The notes below the pieces were generated by a model, which saw nothing but the letters and a program-made list of their open reading frames with translations, had not been told where the DNA came from and made no database searches. 64,000 nucleotides of DNA from a phage, in the NCBI GenBank assembly GCA_020619395.1, contig GCA_020619395.1_4860.1; one strand, 5' to 3'. A program made the position numbers and the translations under genes. Shown piece after piece: positions 32,085 to 61,311 of this stretch. How positions within the stretch are numbered: the stretch's first letter is position 1; every line of letters begins with the position of its first letter.

Positions 32085-32110
32085 TCACCTAGGTAATATA
32101 TATCTGAAAT
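32085..32110 (-). promoter_or_regulatory. conserved AT-rich promoter-like motif (copy B)
   Basis: tcacctaggtaatatatatctgaaat, identical to copy A; between terminator 32144-32167 and ATG 32042. Confidence 0.55.
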
Positions 32111-41737: not shown

Positions 41738-41744
41738 AAAGCAC

Positions 41745-41769
41745 TACCCTCTCCCGAAGGAGAGGGTAG
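41745..41769. terminator. bidirectional rho-independent terminator
   Basis: ctaccctctcc-cgaa-ggagagggtag hairpin with A-run/T-run flanks between convergent genes. Confidence 0.7.
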
Positions 41770-41778
41770 CCTTTTATT

Positions 41779-43512
41779 TTATTCGCCGTCAAGCATGTTT
41801 TTGCGATTATTACCTTTCACCAACGGGTTACGTTTGGCCAGGTTCAGTATCGTCTGCAGTGTAGCGGCAGCACCGCAACAACGACGCACCAACGACAGGT
41901 TACGACGCAAGCCGACGAAGAGGTCTTCATCACCGTCTGGGGAGAATAACACCATCGAGAGTTCACGACCGTCGGTGCGCAGACCAGAAGGTTGATTAAG
42001 CTCGTTCATAATGACTTCGCTAATCAGGTTAACGTATTCAGCGTTATCCTTGGTTGCTTTCTGGAACTGCTCCAACACTTTAATCGTGTTATTAACCGCC
42101 TTATCCAGTGCACTGTAACGGTTCAGGTTAGTCGCGGCGGTGTCGTTGGTAAAACCTTGTTTACCTAGCGTTACCACCACGGCCAGCAGCTCACGTTCGT
42201 CACCAACCGATAACGTGCCCGCTTGGCGCATTTGCTCTAAGCACTCGCGTCCCAAGAACGCCGATGCTTGTGCATTAACCAACACTTTACCAGGCACGAA
42301 GTCCACACCATCGTCATGACCCACTAAACCACGAACTTTGTTTTCTGGGATAACGACCAAAGGTGCAGTAGCGTATTCGAATCCTTTGCGGGAAACGTCG
42401 CTGATGATGAAGTTCATCGTGGTGTTCAGCTGCGCTAACGCCTGACCGAAAATAAGCGCGGTGTCGTGTGCTGCTTTGTTAACTTGCTTACCGTTGTGCG
42501 TGGTGGTTGAACCTTGCTGATTCTTAAAACCTTCGGCGACGCTTGGGTCAATCATCGCTTTAAAGGCACTCTGGAGCGAGCCAAAGTAACCGATAAGTTC
42601 GCTGGCAACATTCGACATCTGTTGGAAGTTCAACAGGTTCGGAATACGCACACCGGCTTCACGCGCAGACTTCGGCAATGCCTGCCAGGCTTTCTTACCC
42701 ACCTCAATCGGATAGATACCGTAAGTTACGTTGTGTTGTAACAGGGTATCTAACAGGTCGTGAATAACCTGCTGGCTCGATTGGCGTTTCTTAGTGTAAC
42801 CTTTGAACAATTCAGTGAACGGCGAACGACCCAGCGCGCTGCTCAAGTCATTCAGATACTCTTCCGCGTTCATGTTCGTAAACACTTCGTCGGCCATCGC
42901 GATAGCCAAGTTCAGGTTTTCCAGGTCACGACCTTTCAGACCCTTAGAGGCTTCGATGTATGCATCTTTCACTGCGCTGATTTTCAGCTGACCGATGATA
43001 GTGTTTTCGGTCTGGGAGAAACTCTCTGCTTTTTCGCCGACTTTCTCAGCGTAACCTTCGCCGTCGAATTCGCCATTACCAGCAAACCCGTTACCGTTGC
43101 TGATAATCCAACCGATGATTTTGATAATCGCGGTCATGATTAACACAACCAATCCCACTTTACCTGCATTTGCCCAGGATTCGAGCGCAACAATAGTCTC
43201 TTTCTGGTGCGTGCGGGTATAGTTAGAGGTCAGGATTTTGCGGACAGCTTCGGGAATTGTGCCTGGGCGAGAAGATTCAACAGCGACAGCGACATCTTTC
43301 GATAGGCCAGCGCGTCGCACCTCATCAAGAATCGCGTCGATTTGCAGAATCAGTCGAGAGCCGTAGATTAAGTCGGCTTCGTTGCGTTGCATGTACAGAT
43401 TGAGCTGGTTGACAGAATCAATACGCTCGGCCATACGTGAACGCAGGACTTCACCGATCTCCCCCAAACGCCATTTGGGGTGGGTGGCGTTACCTGTCAT
43501 TTCCATGCTCAT
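41779..43512 (-). CDS. hypothetical protein (577 aa) with one hydrophobic segment
   Basis: ORF; segment GKVGLVVLIMTAIIKIIGWII is transmembrane-like. Confidence 0.55.
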   Translation of the reverse strand: MSMEMTGNATHPKWRLGEIGEVLRSRMAERIDSVNQLNLYMQRNEADLIYGSRLILQIDAILDEVRRAGLSKDVAVAVESSRPGTIPEAVRKILTSNYTRTHQKETIVALESWANAGKVGLVVLIMTAIIKIIGWIISNGNGFAGNGEFDGEGYAEKVGEKAESFSQTENTIIGQLKISAVKDAYIEASKGLKGRDLENLNLAIAMADEVFTNMNAEEYLNDLSSALGRSPFTELFKGYTKKRQSSQQVIHDLLDTLLQHNVTYGIYPIEVGKKAWQALPKSAREAGVRIPNLLNFQQMSNVASELIGYFGSLQSAFKAMIDPSVAEGFKNQQGSTTTHNGKQVNKAAHDTALIFGQALAQLNTTMNFIISDVSRKGFEYATAPLVVIPENKVRGLVGHDDGVDFVPGKVLVNAQASAFLGRECLEQMRQAGTLSVGDERELLAVVVTLGKQGFTNDTAATNLNRYSALDKAVNNTIKVLEQFQKATKDNAEYVNLISEVIMNELNQPSGLRTDGRELSMVLFSPDGDEDLFVGLRRNLSLVRRCCGAAATLQTILNLAKRNPLVKGNNRKNMLDGE

Positions 43513-43952
43513 GAAATCTGCCCTTTCAGTTCTGCCATGTAGAAACCAACCACTTCCATAAAGCGGCTAATCCACAGACCGACGGTTTCCCAGATATCTT
43601 CCCCGAGTGCCTGGTTGAAAATCTCACGAACTGAGAAACTTTCCAGAGCTTTAGCGCCGCCATACACGTTGCAGTAACGATTGCAGTACAGACCCACGGT
43701 CATGTCCTCAATCACGCCTAAATCAACACAGTACAGCTCGTTAACGTCAGAGACGATGTTACGCATTACCGGACGTAAAAACGTCCCAGCGGCCTCTGCA
43801 GCGCCATATTGGCCATTGTCAGCCAATACCGCGTTATACGCCAGTGAGAAAGCAACCAGACCGGTCAAAGCACGCTGGGCGTGTACACCTTTCCCTTCGT
43901 TGGTACGTTTGAAATCCAGTACCAGGTTATTTAAAGAAACTTTATGCGTCAT
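43509..43952 (-). CDS. hypothetical protein (147 aa)
   Basis: ORF overlapping downstream gene by 4 nt. Confidence 0.5.
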   Translation of the reverse strand: MTHKVSLNNLVLDFKRTNEGKGVHAQRALTGLVAFSLAYNAVLADNGQYGAAEAAGTFLRPVMRNIVSDVNELYCVDLGVIEDMTVGLYCNRYCNVYGGAKALESFSVREIFNQALGEDIWETVGLWISRFMEVVGFYMAELKGQIS

Positions 43953-43967
43953 GTTAAGTACCCTTAC

Positions 43968-44405
43968 TTAAGAAACGGTAAGACCGGCTTCTTTGATGTG
44001 GTTGTGAATCGTGTCGAAGTAGACTTCTTCGTAGTCTGTCACGCCACGTGTGTAATATTCGGGGGAACCTTCGTAGGCTTGCTGCCAGGGTTCGGAGCAT
44101 TTACTAGGATCAATCCGATACAGATGCAAGCTGTCCTGCATCGAAATATTGTTCCAGTAACCGTTCGATTTCAACAATAGCTCGTTGCCGCGCTGTTGTA
44201 CGCGTACGGAAGCGATAGGCTGCCCCGGTGCCGATGAACGATTAGTTCGACAGGCATACTCGATGCCCGCTTTAACCGCCTCTGCGCGCGTCGCATACGC
44301 TTCGAGGGTCGGTGTGTCAGTTCCAATACGGTCACCGTATAAGTCACGGTCAATCTGACTGGCTGACAGCACCTTCCAGTGGTACGGCAGCATCACCCAC
44401 AACAC
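43968..44405 (-). CDS. hypothetical protein (about 141-145 aa)
   Basis: GTG at 44405 or ATG at 44393; no clear ribosome-binding site. Confidence 0.4.
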   Translation of the reverse strand: MLWVMLPYHWKVLSASQIDRDLYGDRIGTDTPTLEAYATRAEAVKAGIEYACRTNRSSAPGQPIASVRVQQRGNELLLKSNGYWNNISMQDSLHLYRIDPSKCSEPWQQAYEGSPEYYTRGVTDYEEVYFDTIHNHIKEAGLTVS

Positions 44406-44431
44406 GCGAGGTGATGTGGACGAAGATTCCC

Positions 44432-45781
44432 CTACGACTTTACCGTGGCGAGCTTCGCAGAAGCCACACGCAGGTCATTAGAAAGATAACGCTCCATCGT
44501 ACGCTGATAATCCACACCAGCGCGCTCACGGCGACCGCCAGGGGTCAGCGTTTTCATGATGAAGCTAAAGACGTTGTCTTTGTCTTTCACGGTTTTCAGT
44601 AATTCGTCGATAGACGCAATGCCCTGCAGAATACGTTTACGATGTTCGTTCGCTTCTTTCGTGGTGCTACCTTTTAAGGTGTTCAGCTCTTCCACTAAGT
44701 TACGACGCATCGTCTCAAAACGTTCCTGCGGCGGATCGTAGATGGTGTTGCGTGGGTCGTTCACAATCAGACCGAACGCCACCGAGATAGTCGTGAAGAA
44801 CAGGCCAACTGGATTAGTCGAAGCCACAATCAGCAGCGAAACGTTAAGCATTTCCAGCATCAGATGCACACCGTAGTTCATGTACGACGCGTTCCGGCAG
44901 AGATAGAATTGGGACGTTTCGATTTTGTACAGGGCTGACGCCAGGTACGGGGCTGCACCAAAACGAGCTGCGAAGTCATCTGCAGCACGTTCCCAGGTAC
45001 GGTTAGCGAACCCTTCCGAACCGGTAACAAACGGACGCTCAAGCAGAATGTCCGTCACCAGATGCATGTAGATGTTCTCTTTAGACATCTCTTTGCAGAT
45101 AGTTTCCGGCTGATTCACTTTGGTGTTCAGCATACGTTCAACGTCTTTTACGACTTTCAAACGCACTGTCGGGTCTTCGGTTTGCATCATGCGGTTCGCT
45201 GCAGCATCCGCAATCAGGTTCGTTACCACCGTACGCATCAAGGTACGGAAATAGTAATAGACGTGGCCGACTTCATGTAGAATAATCGCCGCGACTTCTA
45301 AATCCGTTAAGTCGATACTGGTCAGTAGTTTCGGGGTCAGCCAAAGTGGGGACGGCACCTTGCTGAGTTCGCCTGAAAGCTTCGCATTTTTATCGTCGAA
45401 CTCGCCGTTCAGTTCGTTCTCTTTTAAGAACTTACTGTAGACATCCAGGTCGGTGTTACCCTGCACCATTTTGCGTTGCAGGTCGGCGATAATTGGGTTG
45501 TTCGCGTCGAGCTTCGGTGGCTCCACACCCGCAAACACAACGTCCGCCACACCTAAGTCGGACCCGTTACGAGGCAGGACTGTAATACCGTTGTTGTCAA
45601 AGACCCAGGCAGCAATACCAGAACTCTGATAACCCGCTGGCGAGAAATCGCCCGCATCACGGAACTTACGTACCACTTCCGCCAAAGAGGCGAGTTTCTT
45701 TTTATCTTGGAATCCGATGGACTCCGAGGCCACGGCTTTCGCGTCGGCCAACGAGGTTATGTGCTTTTGCCAGTGTCCCAT
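44432..45781 (-). CDS. putative membrane-associated Zn metalloprotease (HExxH)
   Basis: LHEVGH (HExxH) followed by hydrophobic stretches (LLIVASTNPVGLFFTTISVAFGLIV), reminiscent of M48/HtpX-like peptidases. Confidence 0.4.
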   Translation of the reverse strand: MGHWQKHITSLADAKAVASESIGFQDKKKLASLAEVVRKFRDAGDFSPAGYQSSGIAAWVFDNNGITVLPRNGSDLGVADVVFAGVEPPKLDANNPIIADLQRKMVQGNTDLDVYSKFLKENELNGEFDDKNAKLSGELSKVPSPLWLTPKLLTSIDLTDLEVAAIILHEVGHVYYYFRTLMRTVVTNLIADAAANRMMQTEDPTVRLKVVKDVERMLNTKVNQPETICKEMSKENIYMHLVTDILLERPFVTGSEGFANRTWERAADDFAARFGAAPYLASALYKIETSQFYLCRNASYMNYGVHLMLEMLNVSLLIVASTNPVGLFFTTISVAFGLIVNDPRNTIYDPPQERFETMRRNLVEELNTLKGSTTKEANEHRKRILQGIASIDELLKTVKDKDNVFSFIMKTLTPGGRRERAGVDYQRTMERYLSNDLRVASAKLATVKS

Positions 45782-45851
45782 TTAGACGTTCCTTTTAGAA
45801 AATACGTTACCCACAAATCAGTATAGCAGACACCATATTTGAGAGTAGACC

Positions 45852-47636
45852 ATGGAAATCAATACCTATTACGCACCCGAGGATGTCATCGCTAAAGAGT
45901 GCAAGCACGTCGCTTATGCGACGGACGAAGAAAAAGAAAATGACTTTGTCCTCATCAAAGAGGTCATCCATACTAAGGATGGCAGGCTTATCCCGCGCTT
46001 GGTAATGCGTGAGAATTTAAAGCGTCCGGTGTACGTTACCCGTGAAGAATATCGTAACCACCAGGAGAAAAAAGAGTTCGAAGAAAAAGGAAAATGTCAA
46101 GAACTCTGGACCACCGATGCACAAATGGCGAAGACGTTGCAGATGGGTTTAGGTGCACGTTTCCCTGACCCGAAAAAGAACCTGCGTCGTGTCTGTACTA
46201 GCCCGTACGTTTATTGGGCCGACTTACCGATTACCAGCTGGATTAAACAGAAATACTTAAAGCGCTGGCCGAACAATATCAGTCCTAACCGTCTTTGCGT
46301 ATACGACGTGGAGACTAACGAAATGGACGGCACGAAGGAACCGTGGATCGTGTCATTTATCTTAGACGACGAAATCCATTTCTTTGGTGCTAAGAACTAC
46401 ATGGACCGCATCGGTAAAAACGCGGAAGAAGTCATTCTCAAAAAAGCGCAGGAACTCTTAAGCAAAATCGAATTCGATGAGAAAGACAAAAAGACTGGCG
46501 AAAAGGTGACAAAGACCAAAGACATTATCAGTGGTTATAAAATCTTCACCTATACCTGCGCTACGGCAGGGCAGTGCATCGTCAGGATGTTCGAAGAGAT
46601 TCATCCGCGTCTTCCTGATTTGCTGGTCGCATGGAACCACCAGTTCGATATTTCACGCATGTTGGAAACCTTGCAGAAAGAAGGTATCGATCCACTGGGC
46701 GTCTTTAACCATCCGGATGTGCCGGAGAAATACCGTCGTCTGTGGTTTAAAGAAGACCAGGCGAACAAAAAGACGGAATCCAAGTCACTCACCAAAGCAC
46801 CGTCACAACAGTGGCACGTACTCTACTGTACTGCGTCTTTCTACTGTGTGGATGCCATGGTGTTATTCCGTTCGTTGCGTGTCCACGAAGGGCAACGTCC
46901 TTCGTACAAGTTATCTGCCATACTGTACACCGAACTCGGTTTACACAAACTCGACATTCCTGGACTGCCGTATGAAGATAACCTGCAATGGCACATAAAA
47001 GCACAACGGGACTACCCTGCCGAATATGCCGTATACAACATGATGGATAACTTGTTAATCGTGTTGTTGGATAAGAAGACGAACGACTTGTCTTCGGCAA
47101 TATCCATTCTGGCAGGTTTCTCGATGTACGATATCTTCCCGTCGCTACCAAAACGTATCTGCGTGGCCTTTACCTATTATCTGTATGACAAAGGATACGT
47201 CATCGGTTCCGTAGGGTCTGCAATGCGTAACGATTACGATGAAGAAGTTATCGGTACGGACGGTTGGATTGTTACCCTGACAGCATGTATGAATGCTGAG
47301 AACGGTCTGAACAACATTCTGGAGGAGATTGACGAATATTACTCTGCGTTCCGTGGACAAACTGCGGATGCGGACTTAACCCAGGCCTACCCTTCGGCCA
47401 CAAACATGATGAACCAGTCTCGTGAGACCACACTCATCGAACTACTGTCCATCAATGGGGTTAGTGAAGAGATTCGACGTCGCACGGGCGTCAACTTAAC
47501 TGCTGGGCGAGTTAATGCCATGGAAATAGCGACAGACTTCTTCTGCTTACCGGACAAAGACACTGTCCTGTCCACGTTCTTACGTAAGCAAGGGGAAGTA
47601 GTGACAGAGCCTATGGAGTACATCTGCGGGTTCTAA
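45852..47636 (+). CDS. family-B DNA polymerase fragment: 3'-5' exonuclease domain plus palm motif A
   Basis: Exo I YDVETNE; Exo II WNHQFD; Exo III YNMMD; motif A DLTQAYPSA (D-x-x-x-x-Y-P-S); ORF ends before motifs B/C (K-x3-NS-x-YG, DTD). Confidence 0.75.
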   Translation: MEINTYYAPEDVIAKECKHVAYATDEEKENDFVLIKEVIHTKDGRLIPRLVMRENLKRPVYVTREEYRNHQEKKEFEEKGKCQELWTTDAQMAKTLQMGLGARFPDPKKNLRRVCTSPYVYWADLPITSWIKQKYLKRWPNNISPNRLCVYDVETNEMDGTKEPWIVSFILDDEIHFFGAKNYMDRIGKNAEEVILKKAQELLSKIEFDEKDKKTGEKVTKTKDIISGYKIFTYTCATAGQCIVRMFEEIHPRLPDLLVAWNHQFDISRMLETLQKEGIDPLGVFNHPDVPEKYRRLWFKEDQANKKTESKSLTKAPSQQWHVLYCTASFYCVDAMVLFRSLRVHEGQRPSYKLSAILYTELGLHKLDIPGLPYEDNLQWHIKAQRDYPAEYAVYNMMDNLLIVLLDKKTNDLSSAISILAGFSMYDIFPSLPKRICVAFTYYLYDKGYVIGSVGSAMRNDYDEEVIGTDGWIVTLTACMNAENGLNNILEEIDEYYSAFRGQTADADLTQAYPSATNMMNQSRETTLIELLSINGVSEEIRRRTGVNLTAGRVNAMEIATDFFCLPDKDTVLSTFLRKQGEVVTEPMEYICGF

Positions 47637-47653
47637 AACAAAAAAAAGAAAGG

Positions 47654-47678
47654 CCTCTCTACCCTAGGGTAGAGAGGT
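47654..47678. terminator. bidirectional rho-independent terminator
   Basis: cctctctaccc-tag-ggtagagagg hairpin with A-run/T-run flanks between convergent genes. Confidence 0.7.
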
Positions 47679-47686
47679 ACTTTTAT

Positions 47687-48187
47687 TTAACCGCCAAAGG
47701 CGTGCATAACCAGCGAACGCAGGTCCGGGTCGTTCAGGCGACGAGCCAGACGGTCAACATCGTTGGTATCACGGAAACGGCCTTTATCGGCGCAACGTGC
47801 GTAACGAATCAGCATGTTAATAAAGATAACGAAGACTTCACGCTCGTCACGATTCGGGAAGTTCTCACTGATACGGTTATTAGCAGCCGGTGCGTAGAAA
47901 ATACCGTTACGGTGCTTATTAGCCGCTTCTACAAAGGCGTAGAAACCGTCCAGGAAGGCCTGACCGCGCAGTTTAAACAGCTCACGGAAAGAGTGATGCA
48001 GCTTATTATACGCATCTTTCTCAGCCTGGGTACCAGATGCTTTACGTGGGCCGGCATTGTTACCTGCTTCATCGAGCATCGTGGTGATCAGTTTAACACG
48101 ATATTGGTCGTCGTTGCTGTAAGAAGCGCTATCACGGACCACGCCTTCTGTACGCGGGTCAAGGGTAGTAGTGTCTTTCTTAGTCAT
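47687..48187 (-). CDS. hypothetical protein (about 166 aa)
   Basis: Start set to ATG 48187 with AAGGA ribosome-binding site; track start 48262 would overlap the upstream gene by 62 nt. Confidence 0.5.
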   Translation of the reverse strand: MTKKDTTTLDPRTEGVVRDSASYSNDDQYRVKLITTMLDEAGNNAGPRKASGTQAEKDAYNKLHHSFRELFKLRGQAFLDGFYAFVEAANKHRNGIFYAPAANNRISENFPNRDEREVFVIFINMLIRYARCADKGRFRDTNDVDRLARRLNDPDLRSLVMHAFGG

Positions 48188-48200
48188 GAGGAAACAATCC

Positions 48201-49499
48201 TTAGGTGATGTGGAATTTAGGGATGTACTCTTTAACCACGGTTTCGCGACCGTGCATCGCACCCATTGCAGTGGTCATAACGTTCGAGAAGCCGGAAGAG
48301 ATATCCGCAGCGATTGCCCGTGGCTCTTCTGCTTTGTGTGCAGAGGCGCACGCCGCACAACAGTCTACGTGACCTTGCTGACATAAGATGGGTCGGCGGA
48401 GTCGAACAACTTTACCAAATTGTGTTTTCAAATACTCTTCGGTGAGTTGGGTAACTTTACCGTTAATCATCGCGTTCATGCCAACATAACGCTTGTAGTT
48501 ATACTGGTTAATTACAAGTGCATGTGTCAGTTTTGTCCCGCAATCACCAGGTACGATTTTGTGGTTCTGGAAGATCATCTGGATGATACGTACTTGCTCC
48601 CCGCCCTTGGCAGTTTCTGCACCACGCATGAAGGAACCTTCTCGCGTATCATTGAACTTCTCTACCAGATACTTCATCCCGGTCTGATCAACTTCCATCA
48701 GACTCGTTGGGATTAAGGTAAAATCTGCACCTTCTTTAAAAGCGGTCTGAATACCATACATCAGCATCAGCTTACGGCGACGCATACGCGCTTTAGGAGA
48801 GCTGTAGAACTCAACGGACTGGTCGCCACTCAACCACTCTTTATCAAGTTCGTCGAGAGCTTTTTCAATCATAACGATAACCGCAGGGTTATCCAGTTCG
48901 TCTTTGTGCTTCAACAGCAACGCATCTCGTACCTTATACGCGTCAGGATGCGTTGTAAGGCTTCTAATAGTTCCTGTTGGGGCAATCCCACGACACAACG
49001 GAGCAAGCTCGTGTAGACCCCCTACAAAGCGTCCTATCATGTACGGTCGAATCGCGTCTTCGTTGTCTGGATCGGTGTCATCATATTCCACACAACGCTC
49101 ATACATCTCTTTACGGTAGGCTAGCGGGTCACGAGACTCTGCCAGATACGGGAGACGGGTACCGAAAGCGTAGTAGATAGCAATCCAGTTAAAGACATAG
49201 CGACCCACGGTAGTCGGAATGGGACCAGCTAAACCTGGGTACATCTCAGGACGCAATTCAAACTGCTCTTCCGGCACGAACAGCTCTTCATCTTTTTTGC
49301 ACCCTTCAATCGGCACCCACTTGGTTTCTTCGTTTTCCCAGTAGTGGGGTAAGCCGTCAATATAGTTCAGGTCGTATTGCTCAGGCGGCTCACCTTTTTC
49401 ATTAAAGATAGCCACGTTGAAAACCGCAATACGCCACACCAGTCTACGCCAAGCTTCTGCTTTACACGCAGCAACCAGATAATCAATCTTGTTCATCAT
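48201..49499 (-). CDS. hypothetical protein (432 aa) with C-terminal Cys cluster
   Basis: ORF; C-terminal CQQGHVDCCAACASAH. Confidence 0.5.
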   Translation of the reverse strand: MMNKIDYLVAACKAEAWRRLVWRIAVFNVAIFNEKGEPPEQYDLNYIDGLPHYWENEETKWVPIEGCKKDEELFVPEEQFELRPEMYPGLAGPIPTTVGRYVFNWIAIYYAFGTRLPYLAESRDPLAYRKEMYERCVEYDDTDPDNEDAIRPYMIGRFVGGLHELAPLCRGIAPTGTIRSLTTHPDAYKVRDALLLKHKDELDNPAVIVMIEKALDELDKEWLSGDQSVEFYSSPKARMRRRKLMLMYGIQTAFKEGADFTLIPTSLMEVDQTGMKYLVEKFNDTREGSFMRGAETAKGGEQVRIIQMIFQNHKIVPGDCGTKLTHALVINQYNYKRYVGMNAMINGKVTQLTEEYLKTQFGKVVRLRRPILCQQGHVDCCAACASAHKAEEPRAIAADISSGFSNVMTTAMGAMHGRETVVKEYIPKFHIT

Positions 49500-50367
49500 C
49501 TACCTCCGCGTCCCCACTAGCGTATATGACTTTCAACGCTTCCAATCCTTTCCGCAAGATTTCTCCAGGCGGGACGTTGTCGACGTTCAACAAGGCAAGG
49601 TTCTTTTCTAAGTCACCGTAAGCCCCGTCAAACTCCGCATGAGGAATAATCGATAAACCTACCGCATACATCGTCAGCAAATCAATTTCGCTAATGTCTT
49701 CTACGCGAAACTCTAACGACTGCTGCACTACCGTTAAGTCTGGCTCAGCAGGCAGATTCATAAAGACAAACGCTGACGGGTTCTCAGGGAACAACCGCAA
49801 GTAAGTGACGATACGCTCTTGGCGCACATCATCGCTGTTTCGTTTCTGGCTTTCCAACGACTCTGCTGCTAAGAAGTTTTCCATCACGGTAAGCACGCGT
49901 GGGCTGACAACAGTAATCAGGTCTTCAAAGTGCAGGTTTTCGTCACCGTAAACATAACGACACATGTTCTCCAGGATATACTCTGGTGTCTCACCAGAGG
50001 AGACGATCCCGTAAAGAGCGTCGCTGTCTTCGAACTCTTCGAAGGCTTCCAACACACCGTGAAGGATACGTACGGTTTCTTTCGGTTTCTGGAAGACGAT
50101 TTGTGGATTAAGTCCGATACCGAGGCGGTTGCCTAATCCAACCGCTACCTTCACGATAATGGATTCCAGACGAACAGTTTCGTCCGCAGGGTCAGACAAC
50201 GGGTTGCTATAAACATCGGATAACGCCACATCGTAACCGTAATCCATACCGAGCGTCACTAAATCTAGCATCGGTGCTGCACGACCTTCGTGACGGTTGA
50301 CTGTCAATACAGCCGCATAGTCGGTATAAATATCAATCATGGCTCTGTTCCATAGTGAAAAGGGCAT
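49483..50367 (-). CDS. hypothetical acidic protein (294 aa)
   Basis: ORF; start uncertain (no clear ribosome-binding site). Confidence 0.45.
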   Translation of the reverse strand: MPFSLWNRAMIDIYTDYAAVLTVNRHEGRAAPMLDLVTLGMDYGYDVALSDVYSNPLSDPADETVRLESIIVKVAVGLGNRLGIGLNPQIVFQKPKETVRILHGVLEAFEEFEDSDALYGIVSSGETPEYILENMCRYVYGDENLHFEDLITVVSPRVLTVMENFLAAESLESQKRNSDDVRQERIVTYLRLFPENPSAFVFMNLPAEPDLTVVQQSLEFRVEDISEIDLLTMYAVGLSIIPHAEFDGAYGDLEKNLALLNVDNVPPGEILRKGLEALKVIYASGDAEVDDEQD

Positions 50368-50395
50368 TCATACCAAGGCGAATAAAAAAAGAAAA

Positions 50396-50411
50396 CGGGG
50401 CCGAAGCCCCG
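50396..50411 (-). terminator. rho-independent terminator
   Basis: A-run + cggggc-cgaa-gccccg hairpin downstream of the stop of 50420..50791. Confidence 0.6.
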
Positions 50412-50419
50412 AATTTCTA

Positions 50420-50791
50420 TTAATGTCCCGTCAGATCTTTCTCCAGCTCTTTTAGCGCACGTTCACCTGCCACCTGTTCGCCGGCTTTGGCGATAATCGC
50501 TTTGCGACGACGGATGTTGTCGAGCATCAGGAGTATCTGCCAGCGGGGGCGGTCGAGGAACTCGTCTATCGACATCCGGTAGTTTTCACCGACCTCTTCA
50601 CGTAAGTAAGTGGCGTACCAGATATCGTAAAGACTACCGTATACCGGGTTTTCAAAATCCGACAACCCTACCTGATGGTCGCCGGTATTAAGAGCCAGTG
50701 TACGGTCATACGCTTCCAGAAGCTCGTTATGGGCTTCCTGATACGTAATAGGACGTGTGCTACGCTGCTTGAAGAGAGAGGTGGTATCCAT
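50420..50791 (-). CDS. hypothetical protein (123 aa)
   Basis: ORF but no recognisable ribosome-binding site; frame stays open upstream of the ATG. Confidence 0.35.
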   Translation of the reverse strand: MDTTSLFKQRSTRPITYQEAHNELLEAYDRTLALNTGDHQVGLSDFENPVYGSLYDIWYATYLREEVGENYRMSIDEFLDRPRWQILLMLDNIRRRKAIIAKAGEQVAGERALKELEKDLTGH

Positions 50792-50835
50792 CTTGAGCGT
50801 TGTAATGATTTGCTCGGACGGAACGTCTTCCTGGT

Positions 50836-52806
50836 CTAGCCAATATCGGCGTATTGATCCAGCAAGAATTTCTGAATCTCGGACACCACTCGAGAGAGCA
50901 CGAAAAAAACCCTGTCCGGTGAGATGGTAACAATACCACGATACAGACCGTCTTTCTCGCCGTGTGTTTTACCGCACGCCGGGCAGCGTTTACCCATGTA
51001 ACCGAATACCGCTAAACGTGTACGTTCGTTGTATTCAGCAATTGCGTTTTCAAACTGGCCAACGTAGATACGGTCGGAAGACAGCTCTTCTAGCATCTCA
51101 ACGATTTTCGCTGTGTCGGTTTCAGTTTGTGGGATAACCTGCATTTCACCGTTTACTTCACGTTGCTCGTTAACAGTGATAGATTTCACCATGTGAGCAT
51201 AGCGCGTTAAGCGACGGGCTTCCGCAGTTAAACGCATATGGGATTCACGTTCACGCTCGGTAGCAAATTCAGACAGCGCTGCCGTAGTTGACGCGTTAAC
51301 GTCTTCAATCCACTTCTCAGTGGAGTCAAAGAAGCTACCCAGGGTAGAACGGCCAAATTCAACACGCACGTCGTGGTATTCAAATACCGAGGATGGGTCA
51401 ACCTGATGCGCCGCGATATATTCGCGCTGTTCAGCAATAGAAATCACAGGACGCTCAGTACCGCGTTGACGTGCCCACAGTTGTTTCTGCAGGTCGCTAA
51501 ACAGACCGGAACCGAAACGGATACAACGCGCGATATTCAGCTTCACATCTTCCTGCTGAGTACAACCGTCCTCACCGCACATCAGCGTCCATGGAATACC
51601 AGACGGCCATTTCGCTTGCAGCGGACCCAGAATTACCAGCCAGTAGTCAGCCAGATCAATGGTATCCAACAGCACAGTACGCAGATCGTTACCCGCGCAG
51701 TCGATGGTTGCTTCAGTAACAAACTGAAGTGCGAATTCAACCATGTGACGCATGTACACACCAGAAGACGACGACAGCATCAAACCGTAGGTCTGCATAC
51801 CGATGGTCGCAGTTTCCAGTGTGAGGCGCATGTCGAAGTCACAAAGGTCACGTTCATGCGGTGCGCGGAAGCCCACGTAGATACCTGTGGCCGGCAACCA
51901 AACCATATTCGGAATACCCGACTTACGTACACGGCGCAAAGCAGCCAGCGCGCCAGTGTGCATATTGTCACGCGGTGCAATAGCACCAGATGCCTTACCG
52001 TCCGGCAACATCACACGCTGTTCCCAAGCGGTGTCGCCACGGTCCAGTGCACCCGCGAATGCTGGTACGCCGTCCTGTAGACGTGGCGGGGTCATGTTCA
52101 AAGCACGATAGATGTCGTCGTATACCTGTTGCTGTTCAGGGCTTTCGAATAGCAGCCGGCCGTCTTTCGGTGAACGTTTAATATTACCGAGGAACTTTTG
52201 CAGGGAGTCTGCAATGATGTTAGGGTCTTGTTTCAGACCAATCAACATCTTCGACTGTGTCAGAATACGATCAGCTTCGTCTTCACCCATTTCGGCAGTT
52301 TCAGCTAAATGGGTATTACCGAAGTTAATCTCACGCACCTGTTGTTGTTCCGGAACCTTCGGTGCTGCATCTTCCATTTCTTTTACAGCCGGCTGGGCCG
52401 GTGCAACCGCTTCCGGAGCTTTTGGCTGCGGAGCAGGTTCTACCGCAGGCGCTTTCTCTACTACCGGTTCCGGGGCACGATGTAGGTGCTCCTGCACCTG
52501 TTCAGCAAAAGTCTGAGGTGCCGGTGGTACAGGCGCAGCAGGTTCAGGCAACGCCTCTTCTACAAACGTCGGACGCTCAAGCTTAGGCTCAGGACGATGA
52601 TAGTGTTGGTGATAAACTTCTTCTGCACGGGCAAAAGAAAAATCGGGATTGGCTTGTTTAATAGCCATGATGATTGCATCCGAGGTCGCGTCATCAGGCA
52701 CGGTCGGAAGAATCATCTCTTGTTGGGTAGCAGCCGCCACAGGGGCTGGCTGGTCGGGATTAGGGCGACGGGCATTACCCGGACGCTGATCTTGGATCTC
52801 AGACAT
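50836..52806 (-). CDS. hypothetical protein (656 aa) with Pro/Ala-rich N-terminal region
   Basis: GAGGAAG ribosome-binding site; residues about 70-160 are PEP/APE-rich low complexity; C-terminal C-P-A-C-G Cys pair. Confidence 0.55.
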   Translation of the reverse strand: MSEIQDQRPGNARRPNPDQPAPVAAATQQEMILPTVPDDATSDAIIMAIKQANPDFSFARAEEVYHQHYHRPEPKLERPTFVEEALPEPAAPVPPAPQTFAEQVQEHLHRAPEPVVEKAPAVEPAPQPKAPEAVAPAQPAVKEMEDAAPKVPEQQQVREINFGNTHLAETAEMGEDEADRILTQSKMLIGLKQDPNIIADSLQKFLGNIKRSPKDGRLLFESPEQQQVYDDIYRALNMTPPRLQDGVPAFAGALDRGDTAWEQRVMLPDGKASGAIAPRDNMHTGALAALRRVRKSGIPNMVWLPATGIYVGFRAPHERDLCDFDMRLTLETATIGMQTYGLMLSSSSGVYMRHMVEFALQFVTEATIDCAGNDLRTVLLDTIDLADYWLVILGPLQAKWPSGIPWTLMCGEDGCTQQEDVKLNIARCIRFGSGLFSDLQKQLWARQRGTERPVISIAEQREYIAAHQVDPSSVFEYHDVRVEFGRSTLGSFFDSTEKWIEDVNASTTAALSEFATERERESHMRLTAEARRLTRYAHMVKSITVNEQREVNGEMQVIPQTETDTAKIVEMLEELSSDRIYVGQFENAIAEYNERTRLAVFGYMGKRCPACGKTHGEKDGLYRGIVTISPDRVFFVLSRVVSEIQKFLLDQYADIG

Positions 52807-53419
52807 TAGCCGCTTCCTCGGTTTCTACTACAACGTCGTTGTGATCGACGATGGCGTTTTTAGGGAGTTCTTTCGAATTATTAGCCAAAGCTTCGGCCAA
52901 CAGAACTTCGGCTTGTTCCACGGTATGACCGTTATTCAGCGCCTGCTTCACGAACTTCACTTTCGCGTTATACGTGGAGAAGATTTCGATACTGGTGCCC
53001 TGAATATCCATCGCAAGCATGTTTGCCCGCTGGTCAATCAGGGACAGTTCGGTGTGGTCGACGTGGAACTGGTCTTTGATTTCTTTCCACGTTTTGCTGT
53101 TATCGTTCAGCATGTCAAACACCGGCACAGCCTTAGCATCTGCCTCAACAATCAGTTTACCGAACAGCTCTTTGCCCTGTTGGCACATGCCAAGGAAAGC
53201 CGCCTGTGCTTCATCCAGCGCTTTCAATGTGAAAGCTTTCAGCTCTTCGTGCGCAATGGCTTCAGTTACTTCACGCTCCCGATCAATTTTGCCTGACAGG
53301 AATTCGGTACTTTCGATAAACACAGCTTGTTTTTTCAACACAGACTGCATCATCGCCTTGACGAAATCGCGTGCGTCTTTACGTGGGTTATAAGCGGGTT
53401 TCTTTTTGCGACGACTCAT
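52799..53419 (-). CDS. hypothetical protein (about 206 aa) with basic N-terminus
   Basis: ATG at 53419 preceded by AAAGGA ribosome-binding site (MSRRKKKPAYNPRK...). Confidence 0.5.
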   Translation of the reverse strand: MSRRKKKPAYNPRKDARDFVKAMMQSVLKKQAVFIESTEFLSGKIDREREVTEAIAHEELKAFTLKALDEAQAAFLGMCQQGKELFGKLIVEADAKAVPVFDMLNDNSKTWKEIKDQFHVDHTELSLIDQRANMLAMDIQGTSIEIFSTYNAKVKFVKQALNNGHTVEQAEVLLAEALANNSKELPKNAIVDHNDVVVETEEAANV

Positions 53420-53479
53420 CGTAATAATCCTTTTGCAATTAGGGGTTGGGTGTATACACAATATACACCCAAAACGTGA

Positions 53480-53863
53480 TTAACTTGCATCGTGTGGAAC
53501 AGTCACCCAATCGTGCCATTTTTCAGAGTAAAGACGATAAGCCATCTTTGGATTCTGATCGACGCTGCCGGCCGGGTTCTCATTCCACAACACGTACGTA
53601 TATAACTCGTACGACGAAGTGTTACGGATACTTGACGTGCGGGTGACGTAGTACGTCAACCCGCGTTGGTTAAGGAACAGGCCGCTGTAATGTTCAGTGA
53701 CCATGTAGTAGTGAAACGCCTGGTTGATAGTGGCGTCGGTGCAGAGTTTCTTAGCGACGTCTTCTACGCCGGGATACGCCTTTAGAATGTTTTCGAGAAA
53801 ACTTGCTAAAGTCATTCCGATGTAGGGTGGCAGCGGCTCTGCTGGACGCGGCGGAGTGAGCAT
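53480..53863 (-). CDS. hypothetical protein (possibly spurious or shorter)
   Basis: Track ORF overlaps the 3' end of the helicase gene by 113 nt; true extent uncertain. Confidence 0.3.
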   Translation of the reverse strand: MLTPPRPAEPLPPYIGMTLASFLENILKAYPGVEDVAKKLCTDATINQAFHYYMVTEHYSGLFLNQRGLTYYVTRTSSIRNTSSYELYTYVLWNENPAGSVDQNPKMAYRLYSEKWHDWVTVPHDAS

Positions 53864-56495
53864 GTGATTTCCTTACAACGTAGGGGGATGTCGCGATACG
53901 GAACGACAATACGACATCCTTGAGTGATTTCTGGCGGGCATTCAGGTAATTGCAATGCTTCGGTACGTTATACGCATGGAATAACCACACCGTTGGGTCT
54001 ATTTCACCCCACTCGTTGTGGAGAATCTTACGTGGACGACCGGCCATCTGTTCGTTCAGTTGCTGGTCTTCTACCGGGGTTGAGATGTACATGTGCACCA
54101 ACCCAGGTTTATCGACCGCAGTCCCCGCTTTCCCCGGTGTGGAGATAGAGAAGTCTGCTTGGATAAAGTCGTCATACGAATCGCCTGCATTATATTTCGC
54201 CACCATGAGTGGATGGAATACAGGGTCACGCGATAACTTATCTTTCACATACTCGGTAAAGAACTCACACATTGCAACCGTAGCAAATAGCAGCAAACAC
54301 TTCTGGCCGGGTTGATACCGTTTAAGGAACGATTTCTCAACCACATCCCAGATCATGTTCGCGTATTCTAAATGCAAGTTCTCTTTAATCAGCTTCCCTT
54401 CGAAGAGTTTGTGGTTATACGGCGTCATCTTCGACGCCCACCACGCGAACTTCTTATCATCCAGTCGATAGTACAACGCTTTCACGTCAACCACCGGAAT
54501 GATTGGAATACTGATTCGGTACTCCATTGGGAAGCGTTCTAAATACCGCTCCGCGATAAAGGCTTTACTGCTACCCGGTTTAAGAGTTGCAGACATCTCT
54601 ATCGATGCCGGCGGGTTCAACATTATACCAGCCATGTAAACGAGGTGAAAATGCTCGTGCACCTCATCCATCGCCACCAGACCCACACCCAGAACATCAT
54701 AAAACGTATCCAGGTCCACAGGGTTAGTCGCAGCAGTGTTAATGTACTCCTTCAGGAAACGCTGTAGAGAGACCGTGGGGAGGATTATTACCTTAATACC
54801 GCGTCTATCTAGCTCTCCCGACTTACCCATCTCCAGCGCGTCGTAAATCGCCTGTACGCCTGTACAAACTAACACCTCGTCACGAAGTATACGAAGTCCT
54901 GTTTCATCATCACAGACGTCAAACAGCCATTTGGGAACGTATGACGGACGGTGAATCAATGCGGTACGGGTTCCCCGTTTAACCATCGACTTCATACAGG
55001 TCTTGGTGTTGTGCGTAACGATCCACTTGTCCACCACAAACAACGCATCGTCGTTCTCGACACGAATACACGTGGCAAGATCACGACCAATGGGTTCGAT
55101 AGACTTAACACGGAGTTTCAGTATATCGGTGTATTGTCCGTTATCACGACACAGTTCTTTCTTCCTTGGAAGATGGAACAGTTTCGATGGTGTTTTGTGG
55201 CGGATGGAGACGTTATAAGCCAAACGACCTTCACGACGTTCGCCGTTGTGTGTGAAGAACGGACGTTTCTCGCGTAGTGTTGCAATCCCTCCTAAAGACC
55301 GCACAAGTTCCTGAACACCTAAAGCCAATTCTTTACTGGTGGAACAGAAAGAAGGCGTACCACCATCCTTATCCACAGTACCGTCAGTATCCATCAAGCC
55401 ACGCAACAACTCCCACCGTTGTTCGATGGACGTTTCGAAGTAATCTCCAGGTATGAACTTTTCCCAAGACCTGCAGCCAATTAACCCTAACCGCTCAAGC
55501 TCTCTGCGGACAAGGTTAACACCGCCGGGACAAGAGATGCACTTCGTTATCCCATCGCTGTACGATGAATCATGGATTGCATGTCCAGCGGGCATGACCT
55601 CAGCAACACGGTCACGAATCTCCACATCGCCTTTGGTGTATAAAACACCAGGCATCGATAGGGAGCCATCACCCAAGAGGATACCGAGTAAATACGGATG
55701 AATGACAAAATCCTTAGCTGGCTTTTCCTCTGGTTCTGGTAATGGGATGTATACCCGTGGATTAGGCATCGAAATTAAACGTTTCATCTCTAGGGTATCA
55801 CGTACACCCCAGCGACGATTCTCGGTGGTATTAACGTAGTAGCTTTGCCACAAGTGCTCGCCACATACGTCAACACTCCTACCATCCCAAAACGTCACCT
55901 GATACAGGTCAACCACACCCTGTGGGAACACTCCAGAGACCATTGCTGGTTTTCCGTCACGCCCCGTAACGTAATCACCTAGCTGTATATCCTCAATGTT
56001 CTTCCAACCACCCGGTACACGCACACGCGTACCATGCGCGAGAGCTTTTCCTCTTCCTGTTTGTATCGCGAAAACCGTTTGTGAGCGCGATGGATCTGTT
56101 GCGGCGGCTACGACTTCATTCTGATAATAGAAACGCGACTCTGGGTCTGTCTCTTCCATCTTGAATCCGTAATTATCAAACGTGCACTTATAAGGTGTTC
56201 CTCGTACAGGACGGTGCTCTGTTAGCTTGTACTGAAAAGCGTATTCAATTGCTGCTCGTTGGAGGATATGTTTAATCTTCTCAGCGAACACTTTATGGAA
56301 AATGAACGTCCTTAAAGACGGAATGTGGGCGTAGTACGCGTCACCGCGTTCCGTGGTTATTCGTCCATGTTGCTTGCCCATCTTTGGGGCGTGCATATTC
56401 TCTTCGGCCCACGCGAGTATGGCCCTTTCAGCCTGGCGGATAGGGACTTCAACCCGTACCCCCATACTCGTGTAAGTCATTTGAATTTCTACCAT
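53751..56495 (-). CDS. SF2 DExH-box helicase interrupted by an intein
   Basis: Extein motifs: Walker A AIQTGRGK|T (split by the intein), Walker B LVAMDEVHE, motif III SAT, motif VI QMAGRPRK; basic RRRRRR C-terminus. Start set at ATG 56495 because the longer track ORF runs through terminator 56520-56538. Confidence 0.8.
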   Translation of the reverse strand: MVEIQMTYTSMGVRVEVPIRQAERAILAWAEENMHAPKMGKQHGRITTERGDAYYAHIPSLRTFIFHKVFAEKIKHILQRAAIEYAFQYKLTEHRPVRGTPYKCTFDNYGFKMEETDPESRFYYQNEVVAAATDPSRSQTVFAIQTGRGKALAHGTRVRVPGGWKNIEDIQLGDYVTGRDGKPAMVSGVFPQGVVDLYQVTFWDGRSVDVCGEHLWQSYYVNTTENRRWGVRDTLEMKRLISMPNPRVYIPLPEPEEKPAKDFVIHPYLLGILLGDGSLSMPGVLYTKGDVEIRDRVAEVMPAGHAIHDSSYSDGITKCISCPGGVNLVRRELERLGLIGCRSWEKFIPGDYFETSIEQRWELLRGLMDTDGTVDKDGGTPSFCSTSKELALGVQELVRSLGGIATLREKRPFFTHNGERREGRLAYNVSIRHKTPSKLFHLPRKKELCRDNGQYTDILKLRVKSIEPIGRDLATCIRVENDDALFVVDKWIVTHNTKTCMKSMVKRGTRTALIHRPSYVPKWLFDVCDDETGLRILRDEVLVCTGVQAIYDALEMGKSGELDRRGIKVIILPTVSLQRFLKEYINTAATNPVDLDTFYDVLGVGLVAMDEVHEHFHLVYMAGIMLNPPASIEMSATLKPGSSKAFIAERYLERFPMEYRISIPIIPVVDVKALYYRLDDKKFAWWASKMTPYNHKLFEGKLIKENLHLEYANMIWDVVEKSFLKRYQPGQKCLLLFATVAMCEFFTEYVKDKLSRDPVFHPLMVAKYNAGDSYDDFIQADFSISTPGKAGTAVDKPGLVHMYISTPVEDQQLNEQMAGRPRKILHNEWGEIDPTVWLFHAYNVPKHCNYLNARQKSLKDVVLSFRIATSPYVVRKSHAHSAASSRAAATLHRNDFSKFSRKHSKGVSRRRRRR
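55008..56045 (-). mobile_element. class-3 (WCT-type) intein with LAGLIDADG homing-endonuclease domain, 346 aa
   Basis: Block A ALAHGTRVRV...QLGDYV (Ala at position 1); block B GEHLW; LAGLIDADG motifs LLGILLGDGS and LLRGLMDTDGTVD; block F ATCIRVENDD; block G WIVTHN followed by +1 Thr. Confidence 0.8.
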
Positions 56496-56519
56496 GCTGC
56501 CCCTCTTCGCACAAAAAAA

Positions 56520-56538
56520 GAGGGGCGCAAGGCCCCTC
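56520..56538 (-). terminator. rho-independent terminator / attenuator between beta-prime fragment and helicase
   Basis: gaggggc-gcaag-gcccctc hairpin preceded by an A-run (T-run on minus strand) just after the stop of 56542..58647. Confidence 0.55.
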
Positions 56539-56541
56539 GGT

Positions 56542-58647
56542 TTACAACTCAATTACCACAGCGGCTCCTAGGTCATCGTACAACGATGCCGGGATTTTGT
56601 ACTCGGTATAAAAACCAACGCGATCGATATTCCCCTGCTGTCCTTCAAACAACAACATCGGAATTGCCGAGCGCAAACTAATGAGCGTGTTGTGATCGAC
56701 AAACCGTTTCCCGGTGGCATTAGTAGAATCCTCACTGTCAAATCCTACTGCCGGGAACGGATTGGTTGGTGACTCTACACGAGATATCGCCAACATAATC
56801 GCAATGTGCGTCATCGGTATACCGCTCAGCTTACGCTGGATGTACTTAAACGTATCCATCAACGCATAAGTACACTGTTTCTCTGTAGCACCACCCATTT
56901 CAACCAACGTTACCGGTTTCACACGACCTTGTTTCTTGTTCAACTTCACAGTCGAGGCTGTGTTGATGATTTCCACAATGTCTTCGTTCTTATCGGCTGC
57001 GATTGAACGTAGCTTGGTTTCTAACCCTGCCACGAATTCTGCCATCGATTCAGAACGGTTGGTGTAGACCAGTACCGGGTGTTTCGGGTTCCATCCTTTC
57101 AAAGGAATCTGAACCGTCTTCTTCTCGATACGAATGTTCGCACGTTGTTTCAAGAAGTAATGCAAGAACGGTTTAGAGAAGTTCCCACAAACACCCATTC
57201 GCACATCGATAGAATCTGCAGCGATGATTTGCCCATCTTCTAAACGACGCTGGAATGTCAAGTCGGTGATTTCCGGCAATGCTGTTTCATCGATTGCATC
57301 GAGATCTTCATGATACGCAATCTGGCTCAGCTCCGAATAAACTTTGTCGGTAACGACCAACTCGTATTCTGACCAATTACCACGCTGTGGTTTTGGTAGC
57401 AAGCACAACCCTTTCAGAGAGTTATGTTTGTATTCGGTCATGTACTCACGCATTCTCGGCGTGAGTACCAGGTTGAGCAGATAACGCAAGAAGTCAAGGT
57501 GCTTGGTAGAGAGAATTCCCTGTGTACCCTTTTCCGAGATGGACGTGGACGCCAGGTGACCTGGTGACGTACCTTCAGAGAGGTTATAAATCAAATCCCC
57601 CATACAGGTCGCACAGATGGACTGATTCGCCATCTCTTTACAGGTCATGGCACTACGGAAGACCAGCGGTTTGCCAACCAGGTCTGCGTATCCGCCTTTC
57701 TCAAATCTCAACCACGGACCATTATCACCTTCTAAACGATAACGCATCCCCACCATCGCTTTATAGGCACGCTCATCCAGCTGCGTATCCTTAAACGTGT
57801 AGCGGTGTGCGTGAGTTGTACCGCAGTCGTCGTACGTGAAATACATCAGTACGTTTGCTGCCAACTGCAGTTTACGTGAGGCGTATTCTGCTTCGGCAAT
57901 CTTGTCAGTGTTGTACAAGTGGGAACGTGAAGTTGCACCGGATTCTTTCAAACGCGAAATAACCGAGTGCATTCCGGTAAAGAAGCCTTCCCACACCTGA
58001 TTGGTGTATACACGTGAGTCAATTTCTGACGTTTTACCACGCACGAAGGCTTGCAGTACCTGGTTCATCTTCACAGTACCGTCCAGTACCGACATCACGA
58101 CCGGGTTATACCGTAGCGCAGGGTCTTTGAAGATTTTCTCGATAAGCTTGTACGCTTCTTCAACCATATCCCGACCATCTTCATCGTAGCCAGTAGGATA
58201 TTGCACTTCCCACTGACGGATGAGTTCGAAGTTCGGATGGTCGTAGATCTCCATCATCGTATCAAAGTCGATTGTCGTACAATAGGACAGCAAGTTCTTC
58301 ACTGTCATGTTGAACGCATCGGCGTAGACATGTTGACTCAGGATATAACGCGTTTCAGCAAGGTCGACGCCTGCTTTACGGGCCAGTACCGCTGCTTCCG
58401 ACATAAAGTCCAGATGCAGGTCATCTGTTGCTACCTGACCTGGACGATACGCCATGGTCGATGGAGTGGGCACCTGCGGATACAGACGCGACACACCCCA
58501 ATACGGCCAGCTGAGTTTGATGTGGCGACTAGACATTTCCAACGACTTACCATCGTCGAATGTCACGTAATAACGCCCGCGTAGTTTCCACACCTGATCA
58601 GAGTTAAGCATACGCAAATCACGTACGTGTACAGAACGACCCGCCAT
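56542..58647 (-). CDS. multisubunit RNA polymerase beta-prime homolog, C-terminal part
   Basis: LMYFTYDDCGTTHA parallels E. coli RpoC LVVTEDDCGTHEG; FRSAMTCKEMANQSICATCMG...ASTSISEKGTQ parallels VRSVVSCDTDFGVCAHCYG...AAQSIGEPGTQ (trigger-loop region). Confidence 0.7.
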   Translation of the reverse strand: MAGRSVHVRDLRMLNSDQVWKLRGRYYVTFDDGKSLEMSSRHIKLSWPYWGVSRLYPQVPTPSTMAYRPGQVATDDLHLDFMSEAAVLARKAGVDLAETRYILSQHVYADAFNMTVKNLLSYCTTIDFDTMMEIYDHPNFELIRQWEVQYPTGYDEDGRDMVEEAYKLIEKIFKDPALRYNPVVMSVLDGTVKMNQVLQAFVRGKTSEIDSRVYTNQVWEGFFTGMHSVISRLKESGATSRSHLYNTDKIAEAEYASRKLQLAANVLMYFTYDDCGTTHAHRYTFKDTQLDERAYKAMVGMRYRLEGDNGPWLRFEKGGYADLVGKPLVFRSAMTCKEMANQSICATCMGDLIYNLSEGTSPGHLASTSISEKGTQGILSTKHLDFLRYLLNLVLTPRMREYMTEYKHNSLKGLCLLPKPQRGNWSEYELVVTDKVYSELSQIAYHEDLDAIDETALPEITDLTFQRRLEDGQIIAADSIDVRMGVCGNFSKPFLHYFLKQRANIRIEKKTVQIPLKGWNPKHPVLVYTNRSESMAEFVAGLETKLRSIAADKNEDIVEIINTASTVKLNKKQGRVKPVTLVEMGGATEKQCTYALMDTFKYIQRKLSGIPMTHIAIMLAISRVESPTNPFPAVGFDSEDSTNATGKRFVDHNTLISLRSAIPMLLFEGQQGNIDRVGFYTEYKIPASLYDDLGAAVVIEL

Positions 58648-60907: not shown

Positions 60908-60935
60908 CTCGGTAAGATAATATCTATCTGTTTTA
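60908..60935 (-). promoter_or_regulatory. conserved AT-rich promoter-like motif (copy E)
   Basis: tcggtaagataatatctatctgttttat about 24 nt upstream of the beta-fragment start; sits in a divergent intergenic region. Confidence 0.5.
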
Positions 60936-61274: not shown

Positions 61275-61280
61275 AAAAAA

Positions 61281-61301
61281 GAAGGGACGCCCAGTCCCTT
61301 C
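61281..61301. terminator. bidirectional rho-independent terminator
   Basis: gaagggac-gccca-gtcccttc hairpin with A-run/T-run flanks. Confidence 0.65.
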
Positions 61302-61311
61302 TTTCTAACGC

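Follow-up and report, generated by a model that had tools for sequence, protein, structure and literature searches.

The locus treated here raises the question of what is encoded by a family-B DNA polymerase (PolB) gene that stops after palm motif A. The gene is an open reading frame (ORF) at 45852-47636 on the plus strand of a 64,000-nucleotide stretch of phage DNA (assembly GCA_020619395.1, contig GCA_020619395.1_4860.1), and this whole stretch is referred to below as the window. An earlier note on the same DNA had proposed that the rest of the polymerase must be a separate polypeptide encoded elsewhere, or that the enzyme is exonuclease-only. The window was found to derive from an SPN3US-like Salmonella jumbo phage (Seoulvirus). 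It is colinear with SPN3US in reversed orientation, with SPN3US position ~25.9 kb at its right end. The product of the ORF was 100% identical in amino acid sequence to SPN3US gp44 (YP_009153338.1) by tblastn and is called gp44 in the following. We are highly confident that the replicative DNA polymerase of this phage is a family-B heterodimer of the type of phiKZ-like (chimallivirus-related) jumbo phages, and that gp44 is its N-terminal subunit. Direct support comes from the motifs, which are conserved, from the fold of residues 1-460, from the way in which gp44 and SPN3US gp18 complement each other along PolB, from the co-occurrence of the two protein families and from the lack of fused forms.

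The ORF starts with ATG and encodes 594 amino acids, the length of the annotated SPN3US_0044. The same 1785-nt ORF was found in 36 records and showed 98-99.8% nucleotide identity with SPN3US-like jumbo phages of Salmonella, Escherichia and Proteus. The profile PHROG 3011, 'DNA polymerase', matched gp44 end to end with an E-value of 4e-251 (residues 4-586 on positions 1-574 of 576), and gp44 is thus a full-length member of the N-subunit family. In the Pfam search no model matched gp44, Hint and intein domains included, and its placement as a PolB therefore relies on PHROGs, the family profile and the fold search alone. The gene and its motifs are located as follows.

45852-47636, plus strand: gene assigned to the N-terminal subunit of a split family-B DNA polymerase (DNAP-N type; SPN3US gp44) by the ORF, PHROG 3011, the identity to gp44, the RB69 profile alignment and Foldseek.

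46299-46319, plus strand: Exo I, VYDVETN (D152, E154), both residues invariant and aligned to RB69 Exo I.

46626-46655, plus strand: Exo II, VAWNHQFDIS (N262, D266), with W261 and D266 invariant and N262 kept in at least 90% of the sequences; RB69 has 'GWNVESFDIPY'.

47025-47048, plus strand: Exo III, YAVYNMMD (Y395, D399), with Y392, Y395 and D399 invariant; RB69 has 'YISYNIIDV'.

47367-47432, plus strand: palm motif A with the conserved segment that follows, DADLTQAYPSATNMMNQSRETT (D506, D508, Y513, P514, N521), all invariant columns; the counterpart in RB69 404-431 is 'SFDLTSLYPSIIRQVNISPET'.

Residue conservation was determined in a 41-sequence family alignment with identities down to 22%. 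Ten motif residues, D152, E154, D266, Y395, D399, D506, D508, Y513, P514 and N521, were invariant. The DxE of PolB Exo I is present as D152-V-E154, the Nx2-3(F/Y)D of Exo II as N262-H-Q-F-D266 and the Yx3D of Exo III as Y395-N-M-M-D399. Motif A reads DADLTQAYPS and is followed by NQSRET; the PolB consensus Dx2SLYPS corresponds to D508-LTQA-Y513-P514-S515 and, in RB69, to D411-LTSLYPS. Over the motif A segment, 10 of the 22 positions matched between gp44 and RB69. Regular-expression searches detected no motif B (KxxxNSxYG-like) and no motif C (DTDS-like) in the 594-residue product. The motif content described in the earlier note, three exonuclease motifs and motif A without motifs B and C, was thus confirmed by the motif scan and the alignment. 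In the protein, an N-terminal domain and a 3'-5' exonuclease domain are followed by the first segment of the palm, where motif A is located.

The same order of domains was obtained when the gp44 family profile was compared with RB69 gp43. Three colinear stretches were matched, RB69 92-231, 271-380 and 404-431, the third of which pairs gp44 motif A with 'SFDLTSLYPSIIRQVNISPET'. The AlphaFold2 model of the single gp44 chain had a mean predicted local distance difference test (pLDDT) score of 83.5; residues 1-460 were modelled confidently, with pLDDT above 90 over most of this part, and residues 467-594 poorly. In the Foldseek search of the PDB with this model, the 50 best matches listed were all family-B polymerases, each with a probability of 1.00, and the top matches were RB69 gp43 with an E-value of 1e-12 over ~490 aligned columns. 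The fold of a PolB N-terminal and exonuclease region is accordingly present in gp44. The C-terminal ~130 residues with motif A are the sole part that AlphaFold could not place alone, and the poor modelling of this piece would fit a segment that folds against a partner.

The remaining catalytic motifs, for which the earlier note had suggested a search of the full genome, were sought in the window. Searching all six frames of the 64,000 nucleotides for motifs B and C gave only two DTD-type matches, neither of them in gp44; one is broken by stop codons and the other lies inside the intein of a helicase gene described below, and both were rejected as motif C. A gene of the kind sought is present in the reference SPN3US as gp18 (YP_009153312.1; JN641803 11544-13823; 759 amino acids). 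The gp18 protein matched Pfam PF20286, 'Divergent Family B DNA polymerase', with an E-value of 4.6e-284 and PHROG 2927 with an E-value of 0, and its only Pfam matches were PF20286 and PF00136. Among 11 aligned homologues (SPN3US, phiKZ, 201phi2-1, OBP, EL-like phages, Goslar, RSF1 and a Bacillus phage), K157, N160, N161, S164 and G165 of motif B, D419-T420-D421 of motif C and K497 and Y499 of the KxY motif were invariant; motif C of gp18 reads D419 T420 D421 S422. The gp18 family profile matched the motif B region of DNA polymerase zeta (1021-1099) and RB69 gp43 705-755. A phmmer search of the PDB with the single gp18 sequence retrieved no polymerase, and the family profile was needed. As motifs B and C are located on gp18 and not on gp44, gp44 is a PolB subunit and not a complete single-chain PolB.

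The two proteins are complementary along a common profile. On the full-length PolB profile phrog_262 (856 positions), gp44 occupies positions 91-369 and gp18 positions 576-701, with no overlap. In SPN3US the gp18 gene lies ~27 kb from gp44 on the opposite strand, ~12 kb beyond the point that corresponds to the right end of the window. In agreement, tblastn of gp18 against the window gave a best E-value of 0.086, and the partner is not in the window. The motif search proposed in the earlier note was thus bound to fail within these 64,000 nucleotides. The 592-residue ORF at 12877-14655 on the minus strand was considered as a partner and rejected: hhalign against the gp18 family gave a probability of 1%. 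Its product matched the PDB chain 7ogp_E (molecule name PHIKZ123) with an E-value of 3e-20, and the SPN3US counterpart is called 'polymerase' in RefSeq. We take 7ogp to be the phiKZ non-virion RNA polymerase, and the 12877-14655 product would then be an RNA polymerase subunit.

The point at which the polymerase is divided was located from both ends. After motif A and the NxSxET segment, which reaches T527, gp44 continues for 67 residues that have no alignable counterpart. The gp18 protein starts with ~90 residues that likewise lack a counterpart, and then resumes with the segment that precedes the fingers helix and motif B in DNA polymerase zeta. Since gp44 ends past motif A and gp18 resumes before the fingers, the break falls in the palm, between motif A and the fingers. 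In the proposed arrangement, proofreading would be performed by gp44, whose DEDD 3'-5' exonuclease would be active and which would also contribute the N-terminal domain and, with the aspartate of motif A, the first strand of the palm. The fingers with motif B and the thumb would come from gp18, together with the KxY motif and the aspartates of motif C. Each chain would be translated on its own, the two would associate non-covalently, and both would contribute residues to the polymerase active site. D508 of gp44 would then act together with D419 and D421 of gp18. By analogy, the SPN3US-type pair is expected to assemble like its phiKZ homologues, which form a stable 1:1 complex of DNAP-N and DNAP-C as the core polymerase (Basu et al. 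2026 preprint, PMC13648687).

Several points weigh against this interpretation. The gp18 gene is located outside the window, and its presence in this exact genome is read from near-identical genomes. The motif A segment has low confidence in the single-chain model, and its placement in the palm comes from the sequence alignment and not from the model. The 1:1 complex was demonstrated for phiKZ only, whose homologues are ~34% identical (PMC13648687). In addition, the gp18-type protein (YP_009153312.1) was itself described as the polymerase, a divergent PolB without a fused exonuclease with which a separately encoded, stand-alone exonuclease may associate (PMC7824862). In line with this description, gp44 might be a stand-alone proofreading exonuclease that acts in trans, or in loose association, with a self-sufficient gp18-type polymerase, comparable to epsilon of E. 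coli Pol III, and the motif A-like segment might be a relic; the well-folded part of the gp44 model, the N-terminal and exonuclease region, agrees with such a role. We consider it very improbable. The motif A residues D506, D508, Y513, P514 and N521 are invariant in sequences down to 22% identity, which is unexpected of a relic, and the RB69 motif is matched at nearly half of its aligned positions. In the alignment of the gp18 family, no conserved DxxxxYPS-type motif was found within the first 90 residues, and the phiKZ homologues form their stable core complex at a 1:1 ratio (PMC13648687). Compared with a stand-alone DEDD (DnaQ-like) exonuclease, gp44 has an invariant motif A and ~130 more residues after the exonuclease domain. 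Of the two options left by the earlier note, the exonuclease-only one is disfavoured because motif A is invariant and is carried by the C-terminal 130 residues, which AlphaFold, unlike the rest of the chain, cannot place alone; the separate polypeptide is supported by the gp18 partner, the phrog_262 complementarity, the co-occurrence of the families and the literature.

The heterodimeric reading is also consistent with the distribution of the two families. By tblastn, the gp44 family was detected in 295 and the gp18 family, a separate PF20286 C-terminal subunit gene as in SPN3US, in 302 GenBank phage records. The counts of the two were equal in most host genera, namely in phages of Pseudomonas (81), Erwinia (62), Vibrio (23), Serratia (21), Aeromonas (20), Klebsiella (16), Ralstonia (13) and Escherichia (4). 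The gp44 searches reached phiKZ-species, 201phi2-1, PhiPA3, EL and OBP-group genomes. In the 13 genomes with both positions listed, the two genes were separated by 27-40 kb and were in no case neighbours. All 94 clusters homologous to gp44 among 5.8 billion clustered proteins were 430-640 residues long, with no fusion. A HMMER scan of 1.84 billion representatives resulted in 755 proteins at E <= 1e-30; among the best 150 of these 755, the length was 460-690 residues in 149, the matches mostly reached the end of the profile, and no fusion was found. The single exception in length, the metagenomic homologue P0095 of 894 residues, was considered as a fusion and rejected, its extra 330 residues being an acidic, helix-rich C-terminal tail with no polymerase motifs.

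The constant length bears on two further doubts about gp44, that it is a polymerase pseudogene cut short or that it arose as an artefact of the assembly or of a frameshift. Sequencing errors do occur in the group, as fragmented matches in several SPFM genomes show (30 pieces in SPFM9). In the 94 clusters the length and ends are, however, kept, as they are in 149 of the best 150 representatives, the same 1785-nt ORF recurs in 36 records, a strong terminator follows the stop codon and the catalytic residues are invariant, and we regard a truncation or artefact as extremely improbable.

As a separate observation, gp44 homologues of phiKZ-group Pseudomonas phages were matched in 2-3 pieces spanning up to 2.4 kb (PhiPA3, NC_028999 74326-76694; KTN4, 79889-81769), which suggests insertions, or possibly an intron, in the N-subunit gene of phiKZ-group phages.

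A further way to complete a divided polymerase is protein trans-splicing, and the PolB halves of Nanoarchaeum are joined by a split intein. For the present pair, joining of the halves after translation by a split intein would have some precedent, as the helicase gene of the window carries an intein and the split PolB of Pseudomonas phage MIJ3 has a putative split intein (PMC6892783). Neither half bears intein sequences at the break: gp44 has no Pfam Hint or intein match, gp18 matches polymerase families only, and the end of gp44 (...EYICGF) and the start of gp18 (MDYNSPF) contain no intein splice-junction motif. Together with the phiKZ enzyme, which is a complex of two subunits (PMC13648687), these results leave trans-splicing with hardly any credibility.

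The setting of the gene was analysed on both sides.

45782-45851, no strand assigned: divergent intergenic region of 70 nt with a ribosome-binding site (RBS), a TATAG block and ATACGTTAC; candidate promoter for the phage RNA polymerase.

44432-45781, minus strand: divergent upstream neighbour, homologue of SPN3US gp45, annotated 'virion structural protein 1'.

47653-47678, no strand assigned: bidirectional intrinsic-terminator-like hairpin, shared with the convergent gene.

47687-48262, minus strand: convergent downstream gene, the next gene after the gp44 ORF.

From 41779 to 60884, every large ORF except that of gp44 is on the minus strand, and gp44 is an isolated plus-strand gene, as the earlier note had stated. 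The divergent promoter region of 70 nt that it had proposed has exactly this length. The gap contains the Shine-Dalgarno-like RBS GAGAG at 45841-45845, 6 nt before the gp44 ATG, and ATACGTTAC at 45802-45810. TATAG (45822-45826), ~30 nt before the ATG, was invariant when the gap was aligned with its orthologues in four Erwinia phages; the gp44 RBS and the reverse-complement RBS of the divergent gene were also kept, and a TTACG block partly. A sigma-70 promoter scan detected no site in the gap and is uninformative, since these phages transcribe with their own RNA polymerases. TATAG and WTACGTTRS were only mildly enriched in intergenic DNA, which is no proof of a promoter, and no transcription start-site or promoter study of SPN3US was found in the literature. 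The conserved blocks are compatible with a candidate promoter in the gap, which is as yet unproven.

Another intergenic element was observed elsewhere in the window. The sequence AGATAGATATTATCT occurs exactly three times (15711-15725, 16516-16530 and 60915-60929, minus strand), with copies of two mismatches at 23587-23601 and 32091-32105 (minus strand); allowing up to three mismatches, 7 matches were found compared to 1.2 expected. These five minus-strand copies are all intergenic, and in four cases a minus-strand gene follows closely. The element may be a phage promoter element; it is absent upstream of gp44.

Downstream of the stop codon, the bidirectional terminator and convergent gene of the earlier description were both recovered. 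The hairpin has an 11-bp, GC-rich stem with an A-run before and a T-run after it and scored terminator-like on both strands. Its RNA minimum free energy was -23.4 kcal/mol (z = -5.9), and none of 200 shuffled sequences folded as well. GC-rich hairpins between A- and T-runs were present at all four convergent junctions listed (10443-10505, 41738-41778, 47637-47686 and 61275-61311), and bidirectional terminator-like sites are therefore general here and not a peculiarity of gp44.

The conserved block upstream of gp44, the bidirectional terminator and the spacing of 27-40 kb in every genome checked could be read as signs that the split is functional in itself. The separate and differently oriented transcription units would then allow the timing or the ratio of the two halves to be set independently. 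Free DNAP-N might also act as a separate 3'-5' exonuclease, and the polymerase active site might be formed only once the halves meet, for example in the phage nucleus. We regard this functional reading as improbable.

Apart from gp44, the surrounding genes are phiKZ-like and include those for the major head protein, virion proteins, a split multisubunit RNA polymerase and a DnaB-like helicase of divergent type (PF20307). In the gp45 homologue upstream of gp44, an HEVGH motif and a weak match to Peptidase_M48 (E 0.0026, which does not reach the Pfam cut-off) are a hint of a possible virion-borne metalloprotease. The homologue of the gp36 DNA helicase (ORF 53751-56552, minus strand) contains a 345-residue insertion at 55008-56042 (minus strand) that is absent from SPN3US. 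It is inserted in the Walker A loop (QTGRGK / ALAHGTRV...IVTHN / TKT). Its Pfam matches, Hom_end_hint, LAGLIDADG_3 and Hom_end, identify it as an intein with a homing endonuclease, with an unusual Ala at position 1. The intein was present in only 5 phage records (SPLA3, SPLA5c, EC001, Lh1B and JN03), a patchy distribution typical of a mobile element. An open frame of 715 codons at 16788-18935 (plus strand) runs antisense to nearly the whole gene of the 766-residue major head protein (16611-18911, minus strand); it is unusually long and probably a by-product of codon bias.

The split polymerase as such is not new. Its first recognition in phiKZ-like phages is credited to the work of Cornelissen et al. 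2012 on phage OBP (as cited in PMC5694885 and PMC5105663), and in phiKZ itself ten years passed between the genome sequence and the recognition of the 'split subunit DNA polymerase' (PMC5105663). SPN3US gp18 and gp44 were named a split subunit DNA polymerase in 2017 (PMC5694885), and both genes carry the RefSeq name 'DNA polymerase'. The cryo-electron microscopy structure of phiKZ DNAP-N/DNAP-C, determined at 2.1 Å, is homologous to other B-family polymerases, and the third, clamp-related subunit of the enzyme is Rhc (PMC13648687). The gp44 protein is thus a known split-polymerase half that belongs to a described and structurally characterised system. The analysis confirms that the raw sequence alone is enough to recognise a split replicative polymerase. 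Its additions are modest: the precise break in this orthologue, the invariant catalytic residues of each chain and the lack of a fused form in very large protein collections.

The protein encoded in the window does not differ from SPN3US gp44, and the genome differs elsewhere, for example by the intein in the gp36 helicase. The closest characterised system is DNAP-N/DNAP-C of phiKZ, which belongs to the same protein family; both halves showed ~34% identity over 95% of their length to phiKZ-species genomes by tblastn. The two pairs are alike in being encoded by two genes tens of kb apart, in the context of split multisubunit RNA polymerase genes and a divergent DnaB. Unlike phiKZ, the present orthologue comes from a Seoulvirus with an enterobacterial host and is known here from its sequence. 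The best structural and profile match was RB69/T4 gp43, in which Exo I-III and motif A are colinear with gp44. This enzyme is a single chain of ~900 residues, compared to 1353 residues in total for the SPN3US pair, and long insertions have been reported in the SPN3US C-terminal subunit (PMC7824862).

The split gp43 of the T4-related phages 44RR, 25, 31, 65 and 133 is likewise a family-B replicative polymerase of two separately translated chains, which come together as one enzyme. In these phages the chain is interrupted at the finger tip, and 2 bp to 3 kb separate the adjacent cistrons (Petrov et al., as summarised in PMC3061061). The gp44/gp18 break, in contrast, follows motif A and precedes the segment before motif B, and a distance of ~27 kb separates the two genes, which are on opposite strands. 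In the searches performed here, ~65-90 residues at each new terminus of gp44 and gp18 could not be aligned to any solved PolB, which also distinguishes the pair from split gp43. The PolB of the archaeon Methanothermobacter thermautotrophicus is another natural two-gene enzyme with distant genes and a palm break; its genes are 85 kb apart (Kelman et al. 1999, as summarised in PMC3061061). Its break lies ~83 residues C-terminal to Pfu 467/468, after the fingers, according to the same summary (PMC3061061), whereas that of gp44/gp18 is N-terminal to the fingers and belongs to a phage lineage.

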